A DNA stretch of 64,000 bases from a bacterium (GCA_024641325.1 JAHEDJ010000002.1:74365-138364); one strand, 5' to 3'; positions 5,544-34,935 are shown, counted from the stretch's first letter. Made by a program: numbers and translations. Notes: generated by a model from the letters alone, not told the origin.

Positions 5544-6947
5544 TCAAGGCTCCTGCGTCTTGAACCCGCGACGCTCGAGAGTTCCCCAAGTGTGGTCCCC
5601 ACGCAGAGCCGAGAAGAGTCCGCGAATTCGCCACCAGGTAGCAAGTTGTCGATAGCCCAGGTTCTCGATGAACGCAACCAGTATCAAGCGTCCGAGATCG
5701 CGCGGGCGTGAGTATCGCTGGAACGACAGTTCTTCTAGAGCAACTGCCGCGACCGACAGAGCTACTCCGGCCGCCACCGCGAGGCCGAGGAATGCCAAGA
5801 TGTACGACATTGGAGCGACCCCTGCAATCAGCGCCCACAGAAAGACGACGAAGCCGGATGCCTCGATGAGCGGTCCGATGACCTCGAAAATGCCGTAGTA
5901 GGTGAATCCAATGAGCGCAGGCGGTCCGTAGAGGGGGTTGCCGAACATTTGCCGGTGCCGCCACAGGGTTTGGACCAGGCCGCGTTGCCAGCGGTTTCGC
6001 TGTCTGCCAAGGCTCCCCAAATCCTCCGGTGCTTCGGTCCACGCAACGGGGTCGGGGATGAAGGCGACCCGGTAGTCGATATCGTTCTCCCGGCAATGGC
6101 GGTGGAGTCGGACCACCAGTTCCATGTCCTCCCCGACAGTGTCGGTGGCGAATCCGCCTACGTCGACAACTATGCCTCGTCTAAAGACACCGAAAGCGCC
6201 CGAAATGATCAATGTTGCCCGAAGGACATCCCATCCAACCCGAGCCGCGAGAAACGCCCTGAGATACTCGACGACCTGGAACCGAGCGACCATGTTCTTC
6301 GGCAACAGGACCTGACGGACGATACCTCCGTCGACTACGCAGCCGTTGGCGATGCGCACGATGCCGCCCGCCGCCACGGTGTCGCGGTTCTCCAGGAAAG
6401 GCCGAACGAGGCGCGGGAGGGCTTCAGGTTCGAGCAGCGTGTCGGCGTCCATTGCGCAAAACAGAGGTGTTCTTGCGTAATTGAGACCTGCATTCAAGCT
6501 GTCGGCCTTGCCCCCGTTTTCCTTGCTGACGACCCAGAGGTTTGGATGGCGAGCGGCCCGGTGAACAGTCCTGACGGGCGCGGTGTGCAAATTGGCGCTC
6601 GGTGCACGAGCGGCCGGTTTGAGCTGGAATGCCTCGATCAGGCTGCCGAGGGTTCCGTCCGTAGAACCATCGTCCACGACGACTATTTCGTAGTCGGAGT
6701 ACTGAAGGGTGAGCAGCGAACGAACCGACTCGACGATGCCGGCTTCCTCGTTGAAAGCCGGGACAACGAGGGTGATCGGGACACCTCCGGCTGCGTTCAC
6801 CAGGTCTCCTATGTGTAACGACTTCAGCCTCCCGACGTACTTCTTCAGATCGATGAAGGCCAGAACGCTCGTCGTCATGTAGACGAAGTTCATGGCGAGG
6901 AAATAGACCAGAATCACCAGGCTCACTACGTATACGAGAGTGATCAC
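5544..6947 (-). CDS. Processive family-2 glycosyltransferase of the PgaC/IcaA/NodC/HAS-like membrane synthase type.
   Basis: Has DDGSTDGT, DAD (AMDADT) and QRNRWQRG (QxxRW) motifs, with one N-terminal and several C-terminal transmembrane segments, and overlaps the upstream HEAT gene by 4 bp. Confidence 0.85.
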   Translation of the reverse strand: MITLVYVVSLVILVYFLAMNFVYMTTSVLAFIDLKKYVGRLKSLHIGDLVNAAGGVPITLVVPAFNEEAGIVESVRSLLTLQYSDYEIVVVDDGSTDGTLGSLIEAFQLKPAARAPSANLHTAPVRTVHRAARHPNLWVVSKENGGKADSLNAGLNYARTPLFCAMDADTLLEPEALPRLVRPFLENRDTVAAGGIVRIANGCVVDGGIVRQVLLPKNMVARFQVVEYLRAFLAARVGWDVLRATLIISGAFGVFRRGIVVDVGGFATDTVGEDMELVVRLHRHCRENDIDYRVAFIPDPVAWTEAPEDLGSLGRQRNRWQRGLVQTLWRHRQMFGNPLYGPPALIGFTYYGIFEVIGPLIEASGFVVFLWALIAGVAPMSYILAFLGLAVAAGVALSVAAVALEELSFQRYSRPRDLGRLILVAFIENLGYRQLATWWRIRGLFSALRGDHTWGTLERRGFKTQEP

Positions 6948-8011
6948 GTGACCCCCCCGGCAATCATTTCTTGTGCCAGCGTCGATTGCGGAAGTTCGCT
7001 CTGTGCTATCTCGTGTAGCCGCTCACGGCCACCTGCTTCGAGGAGCGCACGGGCTGCGTTGATTGCGACCCATGGGTCGGCGTCGAACATCCCCAGCTCG
7101 AGCACTTCGATGTCGGAGGCGTCGCCGATGGTGCCGAGGGCACTGAGGGCCAGCGCTCTGAGTGTGTGGTCGCGACCCGACGCGTAGGTGCGGACAATTG
7201 ATACGTGCTCCGGACCCCCCACCGTCCTGAGCAGCCGGAGCAGAGCGGCAGCCAGCTCCCGGTTCGGGCTGCCGGTCAGCACCTTGACCGCTATGTCCCC
7301 GGCCACCGGATCCGTTAGAAGGCCGAGGGCCTCTGCGGCAACCGCCCTATCGATCGGGTTGCCCTCGGTCAGGAGAAAGGATCGGAGCGCGGGTGCCACC
7401 TCGACTCCGAGTGAGGCGAGCATGCTGGCCAGAAAACGACTGTTCCATTCCGAGTAGCGGTGCAGGTTCGAGAGCACTCTGACGATGTATTCCGGGTGAT
7501 GGGACCCGGCGAGAGACCGTGCGGCCACCATCGAGACGAGCGGAGAAGGATCATCGAGTGCCCGGGCGATTCTGGCCCCGTGCTCATCGATGCCCAATGT
7601 GGCGAGCGTCTGCACGGCCAGCGCTCTCCGTGAGGCCGAGCGGGCCTGCAGGTCTCCGAGAATGCCGGGCAGGACTGGTGCGGCAATGTCGGTGATCGTG
7701 AGGTTGTCGTTGCCGACCAGCAATCTGGCGTATCGCACCAGGAAGCGGAGGAAGTGTCGGGAAGACCGGGGAGTGACCGTGTTGAGTAGGTCGGATATTG
7801 GGAGTGACCCGGCCATTACCTCCAGGAGCAAGGGCTCCCAGGTTGCCTCGTAACTCGAGTAGCGACGTGCCCGTATGACGTTCCGGAACCGCATCGCGAA
7901 GGCGGAAGCGGCGAGGTATGCGACTACTCCGACGATAACGAGGGTCGACCACAGGACGACGCCAATGAGTGCCTCCGAGGCCCATACGGACGAGGTGCCG
8001 CCAGACCACAT
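6944..8011 (-). CDS. Membrane-anchored HEAT (PBS-lyase type) repeat protein.
   Basis: An N-terminal transmembrane segment is followed by at least five HEAT-like repeats (…DPSPLVSMVAARSLAG…, …NPIDRAVAAEALGLL…, …DADPWVAINAARALLEAG…). It is translationally coupled to the GT2 gene and sits 8 nt after the receiver gene. Confidence 0.7.
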   Translation of the reverse strand: MWSGGTSSVWASEALIGVVLWSTLVIVGVVAYLAASAFAMRFRNVIRARRYSSYEATWEPLLLEVMAGSLPISDLLNTVTPRSSRHFLRFLVRYARLLVGNDNLTITDIAAPVLPGILGDLQARSASRRALAVQTLATLGIDEHGARIARALDDPSPLVSMVAARSLAGSHHPEYIVRVLSNLHRYSEWNSRFLASMLASLGVEVAPALRSFLLTEGNPIDRAVAAEALGLLTDPVAGDIAVKVLTGSPNRELAAALLRLLRTVGGPEHVSIVRTYASGRDHTLRALALSALGTIGDASDIEVLELGMFDADPWVAINAARALLEAGGRERLHEIAQSELPQSTLAQEMIAGGVT

Positions 8012-28991: not shown

Positions 28992-29384
28992 CTAGCCGGC
29001 AGCTGTGCGCTTCGTCGGTCGCGGTCGAGGGTGCTCGCAAAGCTCGTAGAAGTTGCCGTCGGGCGCCCTGAAGTAGAACCAGCCGTGCCCGTCCCTTCCC
29101 CGGTCGATGTCCGTTAGGCCATCGACTCCGGCTTTTTCGAGTTCGCGATGAGCGGCTTCGACATTGTCCACCCACAAACCGGCAACCGGACCCGTGTCGA
29201 GTTGGCCGTGTTCAATCGAGTCGGGATCGAAGAGCTCGAGGCGGTCTCCGTTCTCCGCGATGAGTTGTGTAAACCCCGGAACATTCACTCCGACCCGCAA
29301 TCCAAGGTGCTCGGCGAAGAATTCGGAGGTCGCCTGCCTGTTCCCGGTGGCCGAACCCACCCAGATAATCCCTTTGATTCGCAC
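28992..29384 (-). CDS. VOC (glyoxalase/bleomycin-resistance) family protein.
   Basis: Has a VOC beta-alpha-beta-beta-beta signature (IIWVGSATGNRQATSEFFAEHLG ... GWFYFRAPDGNFYEL). Confidence 0.65.
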   Translation of the reverse strand: MRIKGIIWVGSATGNRQATSEFFAEHLGLRVGVNVPGFTQLIAENGDRLELFDPDSIEHGQLDTGPVAGLWVDNVEAAHRELEKAGVDGLTDIDRGRDGHGWFYFRAPDGNFYELCEHPRPRPTKRTAAG

Positions 29385-29453
29385 GTGCCCTCCTCGGGTG
29401 GCGGCAGTTTACAGAGACCCGGTCGGCTAGATTCGATTCAAGGAGGGACCGAA

Positions 29454-30512
29454 ATGCCGATCGAATCACCGCAGGATCTTCGAGAACACATTGAACTCGC
29501 CATCAAGGTGGAGTTGGCGACCATTCCGCCCTACCTCTTCGCCATGTACTCGATCGAGGATCGAGACTCTGAACCGGCGCTCTTGATCAGGAGCATCGTG
29601 GCCGAGGAGATGCTGCACGCGGCGCTTGCCAGCAACCTGCTCCTTGCGGTTGGTGGGCGCCCCCGGTTCGATACAACCGCTCTTATGACGACCTATCCGG
29701 GCTTGCTGCCTCACCATGTACCGCCTCTCGAGCTTCGCCTCGCACCCCTCTCGCAGACGCTCATCCGCGACGTGTTCATGAAGATCGAACAGCCGGAAGA
29801 CCACGACGCGCCCGCCCAGCCGGACGTGTTTGAAAGCCTTGGCCAGTTCTATCACGCGCTGGAGCTCGGCATTGCCGACCTCTCAGAACGTTTCGACCTG
29901 TTTGGAGACCCGCAGACAAGTAGCCAACTCTCCGATCCGGCCTTCTATGCTCCGGTCGCCTTTGACGCCGACGACAGCGGCGGCCTGCTGCTCATTGACA
30001 GCCCCGAATCTGCCGAGGCTGCTATTGAGGTAATCGTGCATCAAGGAGAGGGTTTGAGTACCGAACGTTGGGCCGATCCCGGCCACCAAGAGCTCACCCA
30101 CTACGCCAAACTGCTGCAAATCGCCTCTGGCGTGAGCCCGCTCGGAAACGTGCTGGCGGTGAGACCGGACCAGCGCACTGCGGAATTGCCTGAGGTGCTG
30201 CAACCCGTGTCCAACGTGTTCAACGCCAGCTACCGCTACCTCTTCTTCGTCCTGGCCGACCTCTTCGGGCCTCTTGAAGACAAAGGCAGGACCGTAGATC
30301 GCCTGTATCAGCTCATGGTGGATGTAATGTCTGAACTCGCCCACTTCCTGGTGCGACAACCGATCGGCGGGGGCGAGTTCGCGGGACCCACGTTTGAGAT
30401 ATTCGAATTCGACTCAGAGGATCGCAAGGGCGAACTGGCCGGCCTCGCCGGACGAGTTGTCGAACTCCATCCAGATCTTGGCCACGTCGCTGAGACCATC
30501 GCATCCCTGTAG
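29454..30512 (+). CDS. Ferritin-like domain protein.
   Basis: The motif IELAIKVELATIPPYLFAMYSIE is typical of the ferritin-like family. The start was moved to the internal ATG 29454, which has a perfect AAGGAGG 6 nt upstream, because the track ORF start at 29148 lacks support. Confidence 0.65.
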   Translation: MPIESPQDLREHIELAIKVELATIPPYLFAMYSIEDRDSEPALLIRSIVAEEMLHAALASNLLLAVGGRPRFDTTALMTTYPGLLPHHVPPLELRLAPLSQTLIRDVFMKIEQPEDHDAPAQPDVFESLGQFYHALELGIADLSERFDLFGDPQTSSQLSDPAFYAPVAFDADDSGGLLLIDSPESAEAAIEVIVHQGEGLSTERWADPGHQELTHYAKLLQIASGVSPLGNVLAVRPDQRTAELPEVLQPVSNVFNASYRYLFFVLADLFGPLEDKGRTVDRLYQLMVDVMSELAHFLVRQPIGGGEFAGPTFEIFEFDSEDRKGELAGLAGRVVELHPDLGHVAETIASL

Positions 30513-30994: not shown

Positions 30995-31372
30995 TTACAA
31001 GAAACTAGCGACCAGCAGCAACACAGCGGAGGCCGTCAAGAGCACAGGGCAGATCTTGAACCAGATCACGGCAGTCCGAGCACCAGTGACTGAGGTCAGA
31101 ACCGCCAGACCGAGGAGCAGGCCTGCCACGGCGCGGTAAACCCACGCTGCTACGGAGGTTCCGCTCCCTTCCAAAGTGGCCACCACCACGATTGCGGCCA
31201 GGCCCCACATCGTGAAAGCTTCTGCAAGCCACTCCTGGGTCAGAACGCGCCGATTGTCGGGCTCGATCGGAGCGAATCCGGCAATCACCTGTCGCGTCGG
31301 GATGGCATGGGCCACCCCCCAAAGGGCGACAAGCACGGCAGCTACGTAAGCAAGCACCGAAGCCATGCCCAC
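30995..31372 (-). CDS. Small three-to-four-transmembrane membrane protein.
   Basis: A hydrophobic 125-aa ORF. Confidence 0.4.
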   Translation of the reverse strand: MGMASVLAYVAAVLVALWGVAHAIPTRQVIAGFAPIEPDNRRVLTQEWLAEAFTMWGLAAIVVVATLEGSGTSVAAWVYRAVAGLLLGLAVLTSVTGARTAVIWFKICPVLLTASAVLLLVASFL

Positions 31373-31580
31373 ATGTTGCCACTATCGCGGGACGCTGAGA
31401 AATCAGCGTTCGCGCCGGTCAGCACAGACTCAGGCCGCCGGGTCGGGAACGAGGTCGACGACCCGGGACGCAACATCGAGTTCTCGTCAACCGCAAAACG
31501 GTCTAACGGGGAGGTTCTTTCCCGGGTGCCGCCGCAAAGGCTCCCATCCGGTCACCCTGGTGGAACCGTACAAGTTGCAT

Positions 31581-33527
31581 ATGCTCACCACCTATCCCAA
31601 TGAAGTTGCAGGAGCAACAGCCACGCTGGCGCCATTGTCCGGTGGTGCCGGAGTGCTAGAAGGTTTGCGGGCGCTTCCACGCATCGTCGAGTTCGCACGG
31701 CGGCACGCTTTCCCCGATGAGATCGCCGGCACACTTGTCGACGTTGCCGAGGGCCACGCCGAAGACCCTCTGGCTGCCTACGTTGCGCTTCAAGCTGCAT
31801 CCCGGGTTCCGTCGAAGATCGTGGACCAGGCTTTGTCGCGATTCATCAAGAGCGATCATTCCGGCTTGCGAGAGCATTCCGCGTGGGCGTTGAGCCGCCG
31901 TCGTCCCATGCCCTCTGCCGTCCCGGACCTCGTCGACATGGCTGATGCCGGCGGATTCGGCCGGATGATGGCGGAATTGACTTTGGAGAACTGGCTGCAG
32001 CTCGATCCCTCATTGCCGCTGCCGCCTTCCGTGGACGGCTCGCCGCTCGGCGCTCGCCTGCGGTGGCTGGCTTCGACACCTGAGCCCCCGCGTCCGGGCA
32101 CTCGGCGATCGGCAGGGTTGCGGATCGCCCAAGTGCTCATGCAGGGAAGAGTCGATAGCCGTCTTACCTCGGCCGGGTCCGGAGACGGAGGCGGTCTGGC
32201 GACCTTGCAGGTAGGTCTTACCGGGGCATTGGCCGACCATGATGCAGTAGCCGACACCTACCTCATCACCCGGCGGTTGCCCGCCGGTGAGGGCGTATTC
32301 CATCTGGAGAGGGAGCGTATTGGGCAGCATGGGACACTTGCCCGGCTCGACTTCGGGCCGCCCCGATATCTCGCGACATCCGAGATGTGGCCCTGGCGGG
32401 CGGACCTCGAACGCTCCATCCGCCGTCTGCTGATCTCCGAAGGCCCTTTTGATGCACTCCACCTCCGCTTCGCCGACGCCGGTACGTTCGCAGCGGCCCG
32501 GGTCGGCCGGGCTCTGGGTATCCCCATCTACTTCACCCTCGCTCCCGACCCCCACTCAGTCGTTGCGGCCGACGAGGCGTCGGGCCGACTGAGCCGAGCC
32601 AACTTCGCGGCTGCCGATCTGGAGCATCACTACGTGTTCAGGACCTGGTTGATCGAATGGATGCTCGAGCATGCCAGGCGACTGGCCCTCATCCCTCGAC
32701 CGGATCACACCAGACAACTTCTGGATCTGGTCGGCGTCGACATCACGGCCGATCCCGGCCGATTCCAGTCGATAGCGGAAGGAGTCGACTTCGGGGTGAC
32801 CGAGCGCGCGGCGCGACAGGTGCAGACGGCTCAGGACGGAGTTCCGCGGCAGGGGATATTGTCGGACCTCAAGGACGCCATCGATCGGCTTCCGTCAGAC
32901 AGACGCGGACTGCCGCTCATCGTCACAGCCGGGCGGCTGCATCCCGTCAAGGGAATGCACCGGCTGGTGGAGGCCTGGTTGACCGATCCGGCAATGCAGG
33001 AATCGTTCAACTTGGCCGTCATCGGCGGCAACCTGGTCGAACCCAGCAACGAGGAGAGGCGAATTCTGGACGCGTTGGAGGCGCTGCTCGGTGACCGCCG
33101 GGTCGAAGATGTAGGTCTCTTGATGCTCGGCAATCGAACGCACGAAGAGGTGGCGATCCTGCTGGCCGCCTCCGTCGTTGGAGTGCCCGGACTCGTTGCA
33201 CCGAATGGGATCTACGCCTGCGCGAGCGACAAGGAGGAGTTCGGACTGGCCATCCTGGAGGCTCTGGCTGCAGGCCTACCCGTAGTTGCTCCCAGGGTGG
33301 GCGGTCCGGCTACCTACCTGGATCACGGCTTCACCGGGCATCTAACCGACACTCGCTCCGTTCCGGATCTGCAACAAGCACTGCATTGGGCTCGTGAGGT
33401 CCGGTTCTCCGAGATTCGGGCCGATGCCGGCCGCCGGCTCGTCAAGACGGGCTACAGCCTCGCGGCCATGGCTGATGAGCTGGTCGACTTCTATCAGGCC
33501 GATGATCTGGAGGAGGCGGCCGGGTGA
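31581..33527 (+). CDS. HEAT-repeat N-domain fused to a GT4 (GT-B, RfaG-like) glycosyltransferase.
   Basis: HEAT-like repeats near the N-terminus (DPLAAYVALQAASRVPSK, REHSAWALSRRRP) are followed by a C-terminal GT4 signature EEFGLAILEALAAGLPVVAPRVGGP. The start is taken at ATG 31581; the track start at 31365 overlaps the upstream minus-strand gene. Confidence 0.65.
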   Translation: MLTTYPNEVAGATATLAPLSGGAGVLEGLRALPRIVEFARRHAFPDEIAGTLVDVAEGHAEDPLAAYVALQAASRVPSKIVDQALSRFIKSDHSGLREHSAWALSRRRPMPSAVPDLVDMADAGGFGRMMAELTLENWLQLDPSLPLPPSVDGSPLGARLRWLASTPEPPRPGTRRSAGLRIAQVLMQGRVDSRLTSAGSGDGGGLATLQVGLTGALADHDAVADTYLITRRLPAGEGVFHLERERIGQHGTLARLDFGPPRYLATSEMWPWRADLERSIRRLLISEGPFDALHLRFADAGTFAAARVGRALGIPIYFTLAPDPHSVVAADEASGRLSRANFAAADLEHHYVFRTWLIEWMLEHARRLALIPRPDHTRQLLDLVGVDITADPGRFQSIAEGVDFGVTERAARQVQTAQDGVPRQGILSDLKDAIDRLPSDRRGLPLIVTAGRLHPVKGMHRLVEAWLTDPAMQESFNLAVIGGNLVEPSNEERRILDALEALLGDRRVEDVGLLMLGNRTHEEVAILLAASVVGVPGLVAPNGIYACASDKEEFGLAILEALAAGLPVVAPRVGGPATYLDHGFTGHLTDTRSVPDLQQALHWAREVRFSEIRADAGRRLVKTGYSLAAMADELVDFYQADDLEEAAG

Positions 33528-34819
33528 CCGCGGCGCTCATCATCAGTCCCGACTATGCCTCCCACTACTTTCCTCTTGCCACTCTTGGGAAAGCGCTTAC
33601 CGGGCGGGGATACCAGGTTACGGTCGCGACCGGTCCCACTCTCGAACCGAATGTGGTGGCGGACGGATTCGGATACTGCCGGCTGGTGCTGGGTCCGGGG
33701 AGCAATCCCGGTCTTATCACCGAAGATGACCAACCGCCGGGTGAAGACCAAAATCTGGCTGGCTTCTTCGAGGCAAGCCGGCGGGGCATGGTCCCGACCC
33801 TTCTGTATCAGGCCCGTCACCGTCTCAACGATTTGCTTTGGCAACCCGATCAGGTGATAAGCCGCCTCGGCGAAATAATTGGCCGATTGAAGCCTTCCGT
33901 CGTCATTTGCGACCAGCTCTCCTTCAACGCCACCGCCGCCCTGCGAGCCCTGGAACAGCCTTATGTGGGTTTTCTGCCCGGCCACCCTTCTGCGGTTGCG
34001 ACAGACGTTCCATATGGGTATCCGCCCCGCCATCCTGTCCGACTTGCCGCCGCTAGTTGGGAGCTCGCCGAGCTTCACGAGGTCTGCCGCGGGGTTGCCG
34101 AGCAGTTCACCGTCCGGTTCAACGAGGCGGTGGCGCGATTCAATCCGAACGTGGACGGCGTCGAAGATGCGTTCGCCACAACGTCGGGACTGCTGACCCT
34201 CGTGAACTACCCGGGCGTGCTCGGTCGGTCTTACCGGTTGCCGGCCGATTGTCGCTTCATCGGTTCGGCCGTTCGACCGGTCGAGCTGTCGGCGCGGCTG
34301 CGAGAAGGGATCATTACTCGGGCGCGGACACGGATCTATGTTTCCCTCGGGAGCTTCTTCTCGACGCGTCGCGAGATACTGCAGAAGCTGGTGGATGCGT
34401 TCCGGCAGCTCCCGGTTGATCTGATACTCGCCACAGGAGTAACCCTCCCAAGTGAACTGAACTCGCTCCCCGAGTCGTGGATCGTCGAACCGTACCTACC
34501 TCAACCAGCTCTGCTTCCTCATTGCGACCTGGTAGTGACCCACGGTGGAAACAACACCGTGACCGAGGCCCTCACGGCCGGTAGACCCTTGCTGGTTGGA
34601 CCGCTTTCCACAGATCAGTTCGCCGGAGCCGCCGACCTCGAGCAAGCCGGCTTCGGCCTGGTGTTCGACCCCAATCACGATGACCCGGGTACCATTTCCG
34701 ACCTCGCCGAGCGGGTGCTGGGAGGTTCAGCAGTCGATGAGGCGAGGCGCCTCGGCAACGAGTTGCGGGCGAATCCAGGCCCGGAACTGGCAGCAGATCT
34801 CATCACGCCGTTAGGGTGA
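33524..34819 (+). CDS. GT1-family (UDP-glycosyltransferase/MGT-like) glycosyltransferase.
   Basis: Has the UGT signature HGGNNTVTEALTAGRPLLVGPLSTDQ at 431 aa and overlaps the previous gene by 4 bp. Confidence 0.75.
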   Translation: MTAALIISPDYASHYFPLATLGKALTGRGYQVTVATGPTLEPNVVADGFGYCRLVLGPGSNPGLITEDDQPPGEDQNLAGFFEASRRGMVPTLLYQARHRLNDLLWQPDQVISRLGEIIGRLKPSVVICDQLSFNATAALRALEQPYVGFLPGHPSAVATDVPYGYPPRHPVRLAAASWELAELHEVCRGVAEQFTVRFNEAVARFNPNVDGVEDAFATTSGLLTLVNYPGVLGRSYRLPADCRFIGSAVRPVELSARLREGIITRARTRIYVSLGSFFSTRREILQKLVDAFRQLPVDLILATGVTLPSELNSLPESWIVEPYLPQPALLPHCDLVVTHGGNNTVTEALTAGRPLLVGPLSTDQFAGAADLEQAGFGLVFDPNHDDPGTISDLAERVLGGSAVDEARRLGNELRANPGPELAADLITPLG

Positions 34820-34859: not shown

Positions 34860-34935
34860 TGGAGCCGGGTATCGGAATCGAACCGATGACCACTTCTTTA
34901 CAAGAGAAGAGCTCTACCGACTGAGCTAACCCGGC
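34860..34935 (-). tRNA. tRNA-Thr(TGT): tRNA-Thr (anticodon TGT) with CCA encoded.
   Basis: Manual cloverleaf: acceptor GCCGGGT/ACCCGGC, D-arm GCTC-AGTCGGTA-GAGC, anticodon arm CTTCT-CTTGTAA-AGAAG, T-arm ATCGG-TTCGATT-CCGAT. Confidence 0.85.

Follow-up and report, generated by a model that had tools for sequence, protein, structure and literature searches.

What do two glycosyltransferases of different families do together when one of them carries a repeat-protein head and their genes overlap by four base pairs? The question is raised by a locus in a 64,000-nt stretch of bacterial DNA (GCA_024641325.1, JAHEDJ010000002.1:74365-138364; the whole stretch analysed is termed the window hereafter), where a gene encoding an N-terminal HEAT-repeat domain fused to a glycosyltransferase family 4 (GT4) enzyme (gene 1) is followed by a gene encoding a glycosyltransferase family 1 (GT1) enzyme (gene 2). 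The locus is a self-contained bicistronic operon and an autonomous, conserved module. Our preferred reading, to which we assign a probability of about 0.5 from sequence comparison and structure prediction, is that the two proteins are active Leloir glycosyltransferases of opposite stereochemical class that serve one pathway.

Organization and conservation of the gene pair

31581..33527 (+): HEAT-GT4 fusion gene, 648 aa from ATG 31581, or 655 aa if GTG 31560 is taken as the start
33510..33527 (+): coupling junction, with the Shine-Dalgarno (SD) sequence GGAGGAGG at 33510-33517, then 6 nt, then GTGA, as read from the sequence
33524..34819 (+): GT1 enzyme (MGT/UGT-type, predicted inverting), 431 aa, GTG start

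The GTG start codon of the GT1 gene (33524-33526) and the TGA stop codon of the GT4 gene (33525-33527) together form a 4-bp overlap, and the SD sequence sits within the 3′ end of the GT4 gene. The 4-bp translational coupling claimed in the original prediction, which had been made by a model from the sequence alone, is conserved far beyond the source organism, with an NTGA overlap retained in 63 of 78 related loci and a gap within ±30 nt in 75 of the 78.

A scan of one genome per GTDB species yielded at least 520 loci, the best 80 of which were analysed as genome loci. These 80 belong to Acidimicrobiia, Thermoleophilia/Gaiellales, Microbacteriaceae, Knoellia, Nocardioides, Nakamurella, Glutamicibacter and Cellulomonas, and hundreds of metagenome contigs also carry the module. 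The comparison across genomes suggested alongside the original prediction showed that the pair is kept: in 79 of the 80 genome loci a GT1 orthologue lies immediately 3′ of the HEAT-GT4 gene and on its strand, and in all 75 metagenome loci having downstream room it is likewise 3′ of that gene. Moreover, the distance matrices of GT4 and GT1 correlate with r = 0.91 (Mantel p ~0.001).

All-against-all clustering of the flanking open reading frames (ORFs) revealed no other family common across lineages, nor any conserved phosphatase, carotenoid or transporter neighbour. The most frequent other flanking family reaches at most ~20 of the 80 genome loci (ORF clustering gives 16 of 80), the extra apparent clusters are antisense shadow ORFs, and the annotated neighbourhoods are mutually unrelated between lineages. 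As no other flanking family is widely common, the HEAT-GT4/GT1 pair itself is taken to be the functional unit.

Two loci are labelled as coming from other phyla, namely L072 from a metagenome-assembled genome (MAG) named 'Synechococcus sp. UW140' and L024 from a 'Pseudomonadota' MAG. Both hold actinobacterial-type clusters, L072 in the four-gene arrangement of Microbacteriaceae described below. Their contigs are probably misbinned, and cyanobacterial and proteobacterial carriers were set aside on this ground; the family therefore appears restricted to Actinomycetota.

The GT4 module of gene 1

32118..33524 (+): GT4 GT-B catalytic module, aa 180-648, located with Pfam, TIGR02472, PDB 2r60 and Foldseek
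aa 200-205: glycine loop SGDGGG
aa 255-270: RxxFGP...W segment
33234-33260 (+): EX7E motif, Glu552...Glu560, with KEEFGLAILEALAAGLPV at aa 551-568

The GT4 module is assigned to the branch that sucrose-phosphate synthase (SPS) shares with sucrose synthase, and is predicted to be retaining. Pfam Glycos_transf_1 (PF00534) matches residues 444-604 with 65.2 bits against a cutoff of 26.4, and no family other than the SPS domain aligns across the two Rossmann lobes. The SPS model TIGR02472 covers residues 199-629 (profile positions 20-429 of 439, E 3.1e-28) and scores 98.8 bits against a curated cutoff of 576, so that the equivalog level of SPS is not reached. The best solved relative is the SPS of Halothermothrix orenii (PDB 2r60), which was matched over both lobes with an E-value of 2e-18 for the single sequence and 5.5e-37 for the family profile. 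An AlphaFold2 model computed with 31 homologues has a pLDDT of 90.1 and a pTM of 0.89. Structural similarity search using Foldseek gave a probability of 1.0 to many GT4 structures, the nearest being SPS, sucrose synthase, MshA, cyanobacterial SPS, BshA and GlgM. SPS, sucrose synthase, MshA, BshA and GlgM are GT4 enzymes for small soluble, mostly anionic acceptors.

The residues Arg452/Lys457 and Glu552/Glu560 are invariant in 31 homologues, and the invariant arginines and histidines of the acceptor lobe comprise R231, R255, R273, R296, H325, H350, R354 and R373. In the alignments, His325 corresponds to the histidine of the SPS GHS motif, Arg354 to the arginine of HRR and Glu552 to the glutamate of the YEPFG segment. 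His158 of TeSPS is essential, and the roles of the aligned residues in SPS have been described (PMC7264703). Among the two arginines that contact fructose-6-phosphate in SPS, that of HRR maps to Arg354, and the region of TeSPS Arg105 was left unaligned by HMMER to 6kih. Judged by these motifs, the GT4 module looks catalytically intact.

Compared to bacterial SPS (2r60; Thermosynechococcus 6kih; TIGR02472), the only characterised family that aligns with it over both lobes, the GT4 module has the same GT-B fold, with both lobes aligned (residues 199-640), and shares the RxPFG...W segment, the catalytic His325, one phosphate-binding arginine position (Arg354), the R/K pair and the EX7E motif. However, the identity is only ~22 %, gene 1 possesses an extra HEAT domain of 165 residues, and its neighbour is a GT1 enzyme instead of a sucrose-phosphatase partner. 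In addition, its glycine loop reads GDGGG, where GGG apparently replaces what we take to be GGQ in SPS. No sucrose-phosphate phosphatase is fused or nearby, as no phosphatase family is conserved across the 80 genome loci and a single HAD gene was found in one locus.

Sucrose synthase (Arabidopsis SUS1, 3s27-3s29; Nitrosomonas 4rbn) belongs to the same GT4 branch and likewise has an extra helical, non-catalytic N-terminal region. Nevertheless, its N-terminal domains are not HEAT, its sequence match to gene 1 is confined to the C-lobe, and reversible action on sucrose is a known property of sucrose synthase. The enzymes MshA, BshA and GlgM, of mycothiol, bacillithiol and maltose-1-phosphate synthesis, respectively, are retaining GT4 proteins with small anionic acceptors and superimpose with TM-scores of up to 0.82 on the target. 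By contrast, their sequence likeness is again limited to the C-lobe, they are without a HEAT domain or GT1 partner, and gene 1 scores far under the cutoffs of their NCBIfam models.

A role as the GT4 component of a defence or conflict system was rejected. The corresponding model PF20706 reaches 26.1 bits against a cutoff of 26.0, over residues 547-608 only, which is the generic EX7E region, and the paper defining the conflict-system GT4 enzymes describes other architectures. PADLOC gave no match for either GT4 or GT1, and no STAND, TIR or similar genes occur in the inspected neighbourhoods.

The GT1 enzyme encoded by gene 2

34541-34573 (+): HGGNNTVTEAL motif, aa 340-350
aa 363-366: TDQF, including Asp364-Gln365
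SPDYASHY: catalytic-His region, His14
Asp130: a further marked residue of GT1

The original prediction had recognised gene 2 as a GT1 enzyme by its UGT motif HGGNNTVTEAL, and Pfam agrees above threshold, with 50.7 bits for EryCIII-like_C (cutoff 31.7) and 44.0 bits for UDPGT (cutoff 19.5). The score against the MGT model TIGR01426 is 97.8 bits, under its cutoff of 260. His14, Asp130, HGGNNTxTE and Asp364-Gln365 are invariant in 22 GT1 homologues, and His14 is aligned with the histidine of the GTHGH motif of CalG1. From these residues we predict that GT1, too, is catalytically intact.

The nearest solved structures are those of the macrolide and natural-product enzymes CalG1 (3otg), YjiC (6kqx) and OleD (2iyf), matched mainly through the donor lobe. 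In common with gene 2 they have this lobe, the N-terminal histidine and the motifs HGGxxT..E and DQ, whereas the acceptor lobe of gene 2 is barely alignable, gene 2 lies outside any biosynthetic gene cluster, and its place is always downstream of a HEAT-GT4 gene. Several GT1 homologues carry the name 'zeaxanthin glucosyltransferase', which is an automatic label of the Joint Genome Institute (JGI). By analogy only, the GtfA/GtfB complexes offer a precedent for a GT4 enzyme working with a second, adjacently encoded GT-B protein; GtfB is non-catalytic, whereas GT1 keeps all catalytic motifs.

The HEAT domain and the start of gene 1

31599..32075 (+): N-terminal PBS-lyase-type HEAT solenoid, aa 7-165, ten helices

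The N-terminal domain of gene 1 is an alpha-solenoid of paired antiparallel helices, which forms a confident fold packed within the AlphaFold2 model and carries a GGFxxMxAELxLExW C-cap resembling that of the alphaRep proteins. Its own match to Pfam HEAT_2 (PF13646) scores 19.1 bits when the full protein is searched and 23.2 bits when the domain is taken by itself, both below the gathering threshold of 27.7 bits. The homologous domains fare better: 18 of 22 match HEAT_2, at best with E 1.5e-10, and the profile of the domain family matches alphaRep HEAT proteins with E-values of 1e-22 to 1e-28, a match that takes in the GF..... LE C-cap. AlphaRep proteins are designs based on PBS-lyase-type HEAT repeats. 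On profile comparison, the domain family is therefore clearly HEAT despite the sub-threshold score of the window sequence; the doubt attached to the original prediction, that the N-terminus might not be HEAT-like, holds for the single sequence but not for the family.

In a search of 1.84 billion representative sequences, the HEAT-domain profile retrieved thousands of generic multi-repeat HEAT proteins, and its single-stretch matches in proteins of 487-746 aa are the HEAT-GT4 family itself. Conservation within the domain is limited to the repeat scaffold and the cap, with no conserved pocket residues outside the structural repeat positions, which favours a scaffold over a catalytic or ligand-binding pocket. 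Compared to the PBS-lyase HEAT-like proteins CpcE/CpcF (5n3u), YibA (1oyz) and the alphaRep designs, the domain with its four to five hairpins is short, is fused covalently to a glycosyltransferase, and gives no indication of chromophore binding.

The longest ORF for gene 1 in the ORF list spans 31365-33527 (+) and would encode 720 aa, but its extra stretch (31365-31580) is an overcall. Upstream of ~31553, the window differs from a 90 %-identical orthologue in a syntenic Acidimicrobiia MAG by numerous substitutions as well as indels of 52, 4, 2 and 1 nt, whereas downstream of this point the two are nearly identical; the stretch is thus unconserved and interrupted by non-triplet indels. The overcalled protein is also present in a public protein collection (P0001). 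ATG 31581 aligns with the start of 30 homologues, and the NCBI call for the orthologue, 655 aa, equals GTG 31560 in the window. These comparisons place the start of gene 1 near 31560-31581 rather than at 31365. The homologue starts agree with ATG 31581 and not with a start much further downstream, so that the HEAT-GT4 fusion is independent of the exact start. The 648-aa fusion described in the original prediction is therefore sound in its ORF, its HEAT family profile and its GT4 Pfam match, and more than 262 homologues of HEAT-GT4 fall within 600-750 aa.

Proposed action of the two enzymes

According to our preferred reading, a ribosome finishing gene 1 meets a strong SD sequence and restarts at the overlapping GTGA, and by this coupled restart GT4 and GT1 would be made in roughly 1:1 amounts. 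The two enzymes would then use nucleotide sugars to add two sugars, one after the other, to a single small, non-polymeric acceptor, either in the cytoplasm or on the inner side of the membrane, GT4 forming an alpha link and GT1 a beta link. The HEAT solenoid, with four to five hairpins, probably docks GT1 or a small membrane partner beside the active site of GT4; conserved pocket residues are lacking in it outside the structural repeats.

The acceptor lobe keeps SPS-like features, including the histidine and one phosphate-binding arginine position, and GT4 therefore most likely acts on a small hydroxylated compound that bears an anionic group; the product of GT1 is the alternative acceptor. 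The earlier proposal of a diglycosyl lipid or a glycosylated small molecule is plausible from the sequence, and, given the likeness to SPS, a small acceptor, possibly anionic, is favoured no less than a lipid. Judging solely from the contexts of the pair in other lineages, the product may be a glycoside that protects against light or oxidative stress.

Genomic contexts in other clades

In nine genome and three metagenome loci of Thermoleophilia/Gaiellales (L007, L008, L009, L015, L018-L022, L102, L123 and L162), a CarH/LitR regulator with a MerR domain and two B12-binding domains is encoded divergently from the pair, upstream of it. Across these loci the catalytic parts of GT4 share only 46-91 % identity (median 51 %), which argues that the linkage is more than recent synteny. 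Class I LitR/CarH proteins are B12-based light sensors that govern genes for carotenoids and photolyase and others related to them (PMC9758184, PMC8156234). A DUF378 gene and two tiny membrane-protein genes separate the regulator from the pair.

Two adjacent genes for tiny membrane proteins (~73 aa; 57-81 aa; no Pfam family) occur in ~26 loci, including two of Acidimicrobiia, and are preceded by the DUF378 gene in a few of them. Examples are L020 (5081-5723) and L022 (5342-5969); others are L003, L006, L007, L009, L011, L013, L015, L016, L018, L019, L021, L064, L076 and L082, together with L095-L099, L102-L104, L121, L162 and L167. In further loci, genes for DPRP, photolyase, a DUF2867-SDR protein, DUF1295 and amine oxidase recur near the pair. 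The window contains neither a homologue of the tiny membrane proteins nor, anywhere in its 64 kb, one of LitR.

In Microbacteriaceae, the HEAT domain is longer, giving a HEAT-GT4 protein of ~720-750 aa, and the pair stands in a four-gene layout of a divergent polysaccharide pyruvyl transferase gene, HEAT-GT4, GT1 and a convergent gene for a 226-aa, weakly GT-A-like protein. This layout was found in 18-19 genome and 14-15 metagenome loci, among them L030, L035, L040, L041, L044, L045, L047-L049, L054, L059, L060, L068, L072, L074, L079 and L086. A photolyase gene lies ~4 kb downstream in L047, L049, L086, L132 and L144. Altogether, the contexts in these clades fit a glycosylated, possibly membrane-associated, stress-protective compound, and these hints lie outside the window.

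Observations that weigh against the preferred reading

Several observations count against two active transferases in one pathway. Neither protein has a characterised homologue in NCBIfam, Pfam or the literature searches, and no Rosetta-stone fusion of GT4 with GT1 exists among 120 GT1 homologues or 150 HEAT-domain matches. The closest genome relative (72 % identity) has HEAT-GT4 without an adjoining GT1 gene, so GT4 can occur with no partner gene beside it. Neither the window nor the Acidimicrobiia-type loci show the light-related context, and the tiny membrane proteins and the pyruvyl transferase point to a membrane or oligosaccharide role rather than to a soluble solute. In the 72 % relative (L005 / L081, contig CAVQVN010000005.1), the next gene encodes a GNAT acetyltransferase on the other strand, and tRNA-Arg(CCT) is located directly upstream.

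Alternative functions of the pair

A possible, if rather unlikely, alternative is that the pair makes a light-induced photoprotectant by glycosylating a lipophilic pigment or lipid, such as a carotenoid or other isoprenoid. GT1 would put the first sugar on the aglycone and GT4 would extend it, while the PBS-lyase-like HEAT domain would help to bind a long hydrophobic substrate or tether the enzymes to the small membrane proteins. The divergent CarH/LitR genes of the 12 Thermoleophilia loci, conserved at a median GT4 identity of 51 %, argue for it, as do the DPRP, photolyase, DUF2867-SDR, DUF1295 and amine-oxidase genes nearby and, in many of those loci, the DUF378 gene and the two tiny membrane-protein genes within the operon. 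The nearest solved GT1 structures use hydrophobic aglycones, several GT1 homologues bear the zeaxanthin name, and CarH/LitR regulons hold carotenoid genes, among them one for a predicted glycosyltransferase in Myxococcus xanthus (PMC8156234). However, neither the window nor its close relative nor other Acidimicrobiia loci have a LitR, photolyase or crt gene beside the pair, and a carotenoid gene adjoins the pair in no locus. Moreover, the SPS-like acceptor lobe of GT4 is unexpected for a lipid-sugar acceptor, and the JGI name is an automatic assignment.

Production of a compatible solute is also unlikely. In this scheme, GT4 would glycosylate a sugar phosphate or an organic-acid phosphate in the manner of SPS, an unlinked phosphatase would act, and GT1 would then add a second sugar, giving a soluble osmo- or cryoprotective solute resembling a di- or trisaccharide. 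It accords with SPS as the best match over both lobes, with the conserved catalytic histidine and phosphate-binding arginine, with structural neighbours that all act on small soluble anionic acceptors, and with the many invariant arginines and histidines of the acceptor lobe listed above. Many carriers, furthermore, are cold or soil Microbacteriaceae and glacier or Antarctic MAGs. The TIGR02472 score far under 576, the lack of a conserved phosphatase nearby and the GGG loop in place of the presumed GGQ speak against it, and we know of no compatible-solute pathway that employs GT1 enzymes of this type.

A more elaborate proposal, which we hold to be quite improbable, is that the pair forms the core of an undescribed actinobacterial pathway to a diglycoside that protects against light or oxidative stress and is built on a pigment, a lipid or a small redox cofactor. 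The HEAT domain would be a platform assembling GT1, together with the tiny membrane proteins in some clades, and CarH/LitR would be the switch in Thermoleophilia.

Regeneration of a sugar donor is very improbable. Working in reverse, as sucrose synthase and TreT can, GT4 would convert a disaccharide and a nucleoside diphosphate (NDP) to an NDP-sugar that is passed to GT1, a natural counterpart of the engineered cascades of sucrose synthase and UGT enzymes. The kinship with sucrose synthase in structure and sequence, the extra helical N-terminal region in both and the strict 1:1 coupling to a UGT-type enzyme would suit such a couple, but it is pure analogy; the HEAT domain has no kinship with the N-terminal domains found in sucrose synthase, and the sequence match is to the C-lobe only. 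An invertase-like gene of GH100, the alkaline/neutral invertase family, would likewise suit it and was found once only, in an Acidimicrobiia-like MAG (L084, 1864-3075, −), where it lies 6 kb upstream of the pair.

Protein glycosylation is just as improbable: the HEAT domain would bind a protein or peptide as the TPR superhelix of OGT does and the two transferases would build a short O-glycan, in keeping with the usual role of HEAT repeats in protein contacts and with the architecture of OGT, an alpha-solenoid N-terminal to GT-B that has no sequence relation to gene 1 beyond the fold class, but the NCBIfam matches of GT4 to the adhesin glycosyltransferases SdgA and GtfA are weak, short and confined to the C-lobe (E 5e-4 to 2e-2), no conserved candidate substrate gene was found save the tiny membrane proteins in one clade, and the SPS-type features of the acceptor lobe are kept.

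Surroundings of the pair in the window

34860-34935 (−): tRNA-Thr(TGT), convergent with GT1, 40 nt past gene 2

The neighbours of the pair in the window encode a glyoxalase, a ferritin-like protein, DUF3263, LytR_C, an AI-2E transporter and ABC ATPases, and the close relative keeps an identical gene order around the pair. At 454 aa, the longest ORF for the ferritin-like protein (29148-30512) overlaps with the gene for the glyoxalase (28992-29384) on the opposite strand; the ferritin-like gene encodes 352 aa in the relative, and its real start is probably near 29450.

The original prediction placed the pair just before tRNA-Thr. The adjacency is true, but the tRNA lies on the opposite strand and tRNA-Thr is absent from all 60 related loci scanned, and the adjacency is incidental. 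A mobile island at the tRNA was rejected for the same two reasons, and also because the relative is syntenic and no plasmid matches were found; the GC content is only slightly raised. Likewise, a regulatory RNA or promoter was rejected: terminator-like sites are no commoner than in shuffled sequence, sigma-70-like promoters were not found, and the tRNA is the sole match to Rfam.

A second HEAT-glycosyltransferase pair

6944-8011 (−): HEAT protein, 355 aa, HEAT_2 54.9 bits
5544-6947 (−): membrane GT2 synthase, 467 aa, 4-bp overlap with the HEAT gene

A second pair of HEAT and glycosyltransferase genes, to which the original prediction had pointed, is indeed present on the minus strand of the window. 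Its HEAT protein has a hydrophobic N-terminal segment that is probably membrane-spanning. Homologues in Rhodothermus, Longimicrobiales and other MAGs are arranged as [response regulator-GGDEF-response regulator]-HEAT-GT2, with a YaiO barrel next in line in a single instance, and this arrangement suggests an exopolysaccharide synthase module linked to cyclic di-GMP; no GGDEF gene adjoins the HEAT-GT2 pair in the window. A specific kinship between the HEAT domains of the two pairs was rejected, as hhalign gave a probability of 0.5 %. HEAT scaffolds had been regarded as a recurring accessory of glycosyltransferases in this organism. They do recur in the window, but as two independent, widely distributed modules, the first pan-Actinomycetota and the second cross-phylum; neither is peculiar to the source organism, and the generalization was overstated.

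Implications

We found no NCBIfam, Pfam, PADLOC or PDB entry that covers the HEAT-GT4/GT1 family and no paper on it, and literature searches on HEAT combined with GT4, actinobacterial SPS, LitR with glycosyltransferases and light responses of Microbacteriaceae returned nothing about it. The overlapping pair is therefore an abundant and well-defined module, spread across three classes of Actinomycetota, without an assigned function in curated families, structures or papers. It presents a natural case of an SPS-type enzyme that gained a repeat-protein head and a UGT-type partner. Identification of the product would extend actinobacterial physiology by a glycoside, perhaps one under light control, and would reveal the role of a HEAT domain on a Leloir glycosyltransferase. 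For enzyme engineers, the pair is a candidate for a natural two-glycosyltransferase assembly.

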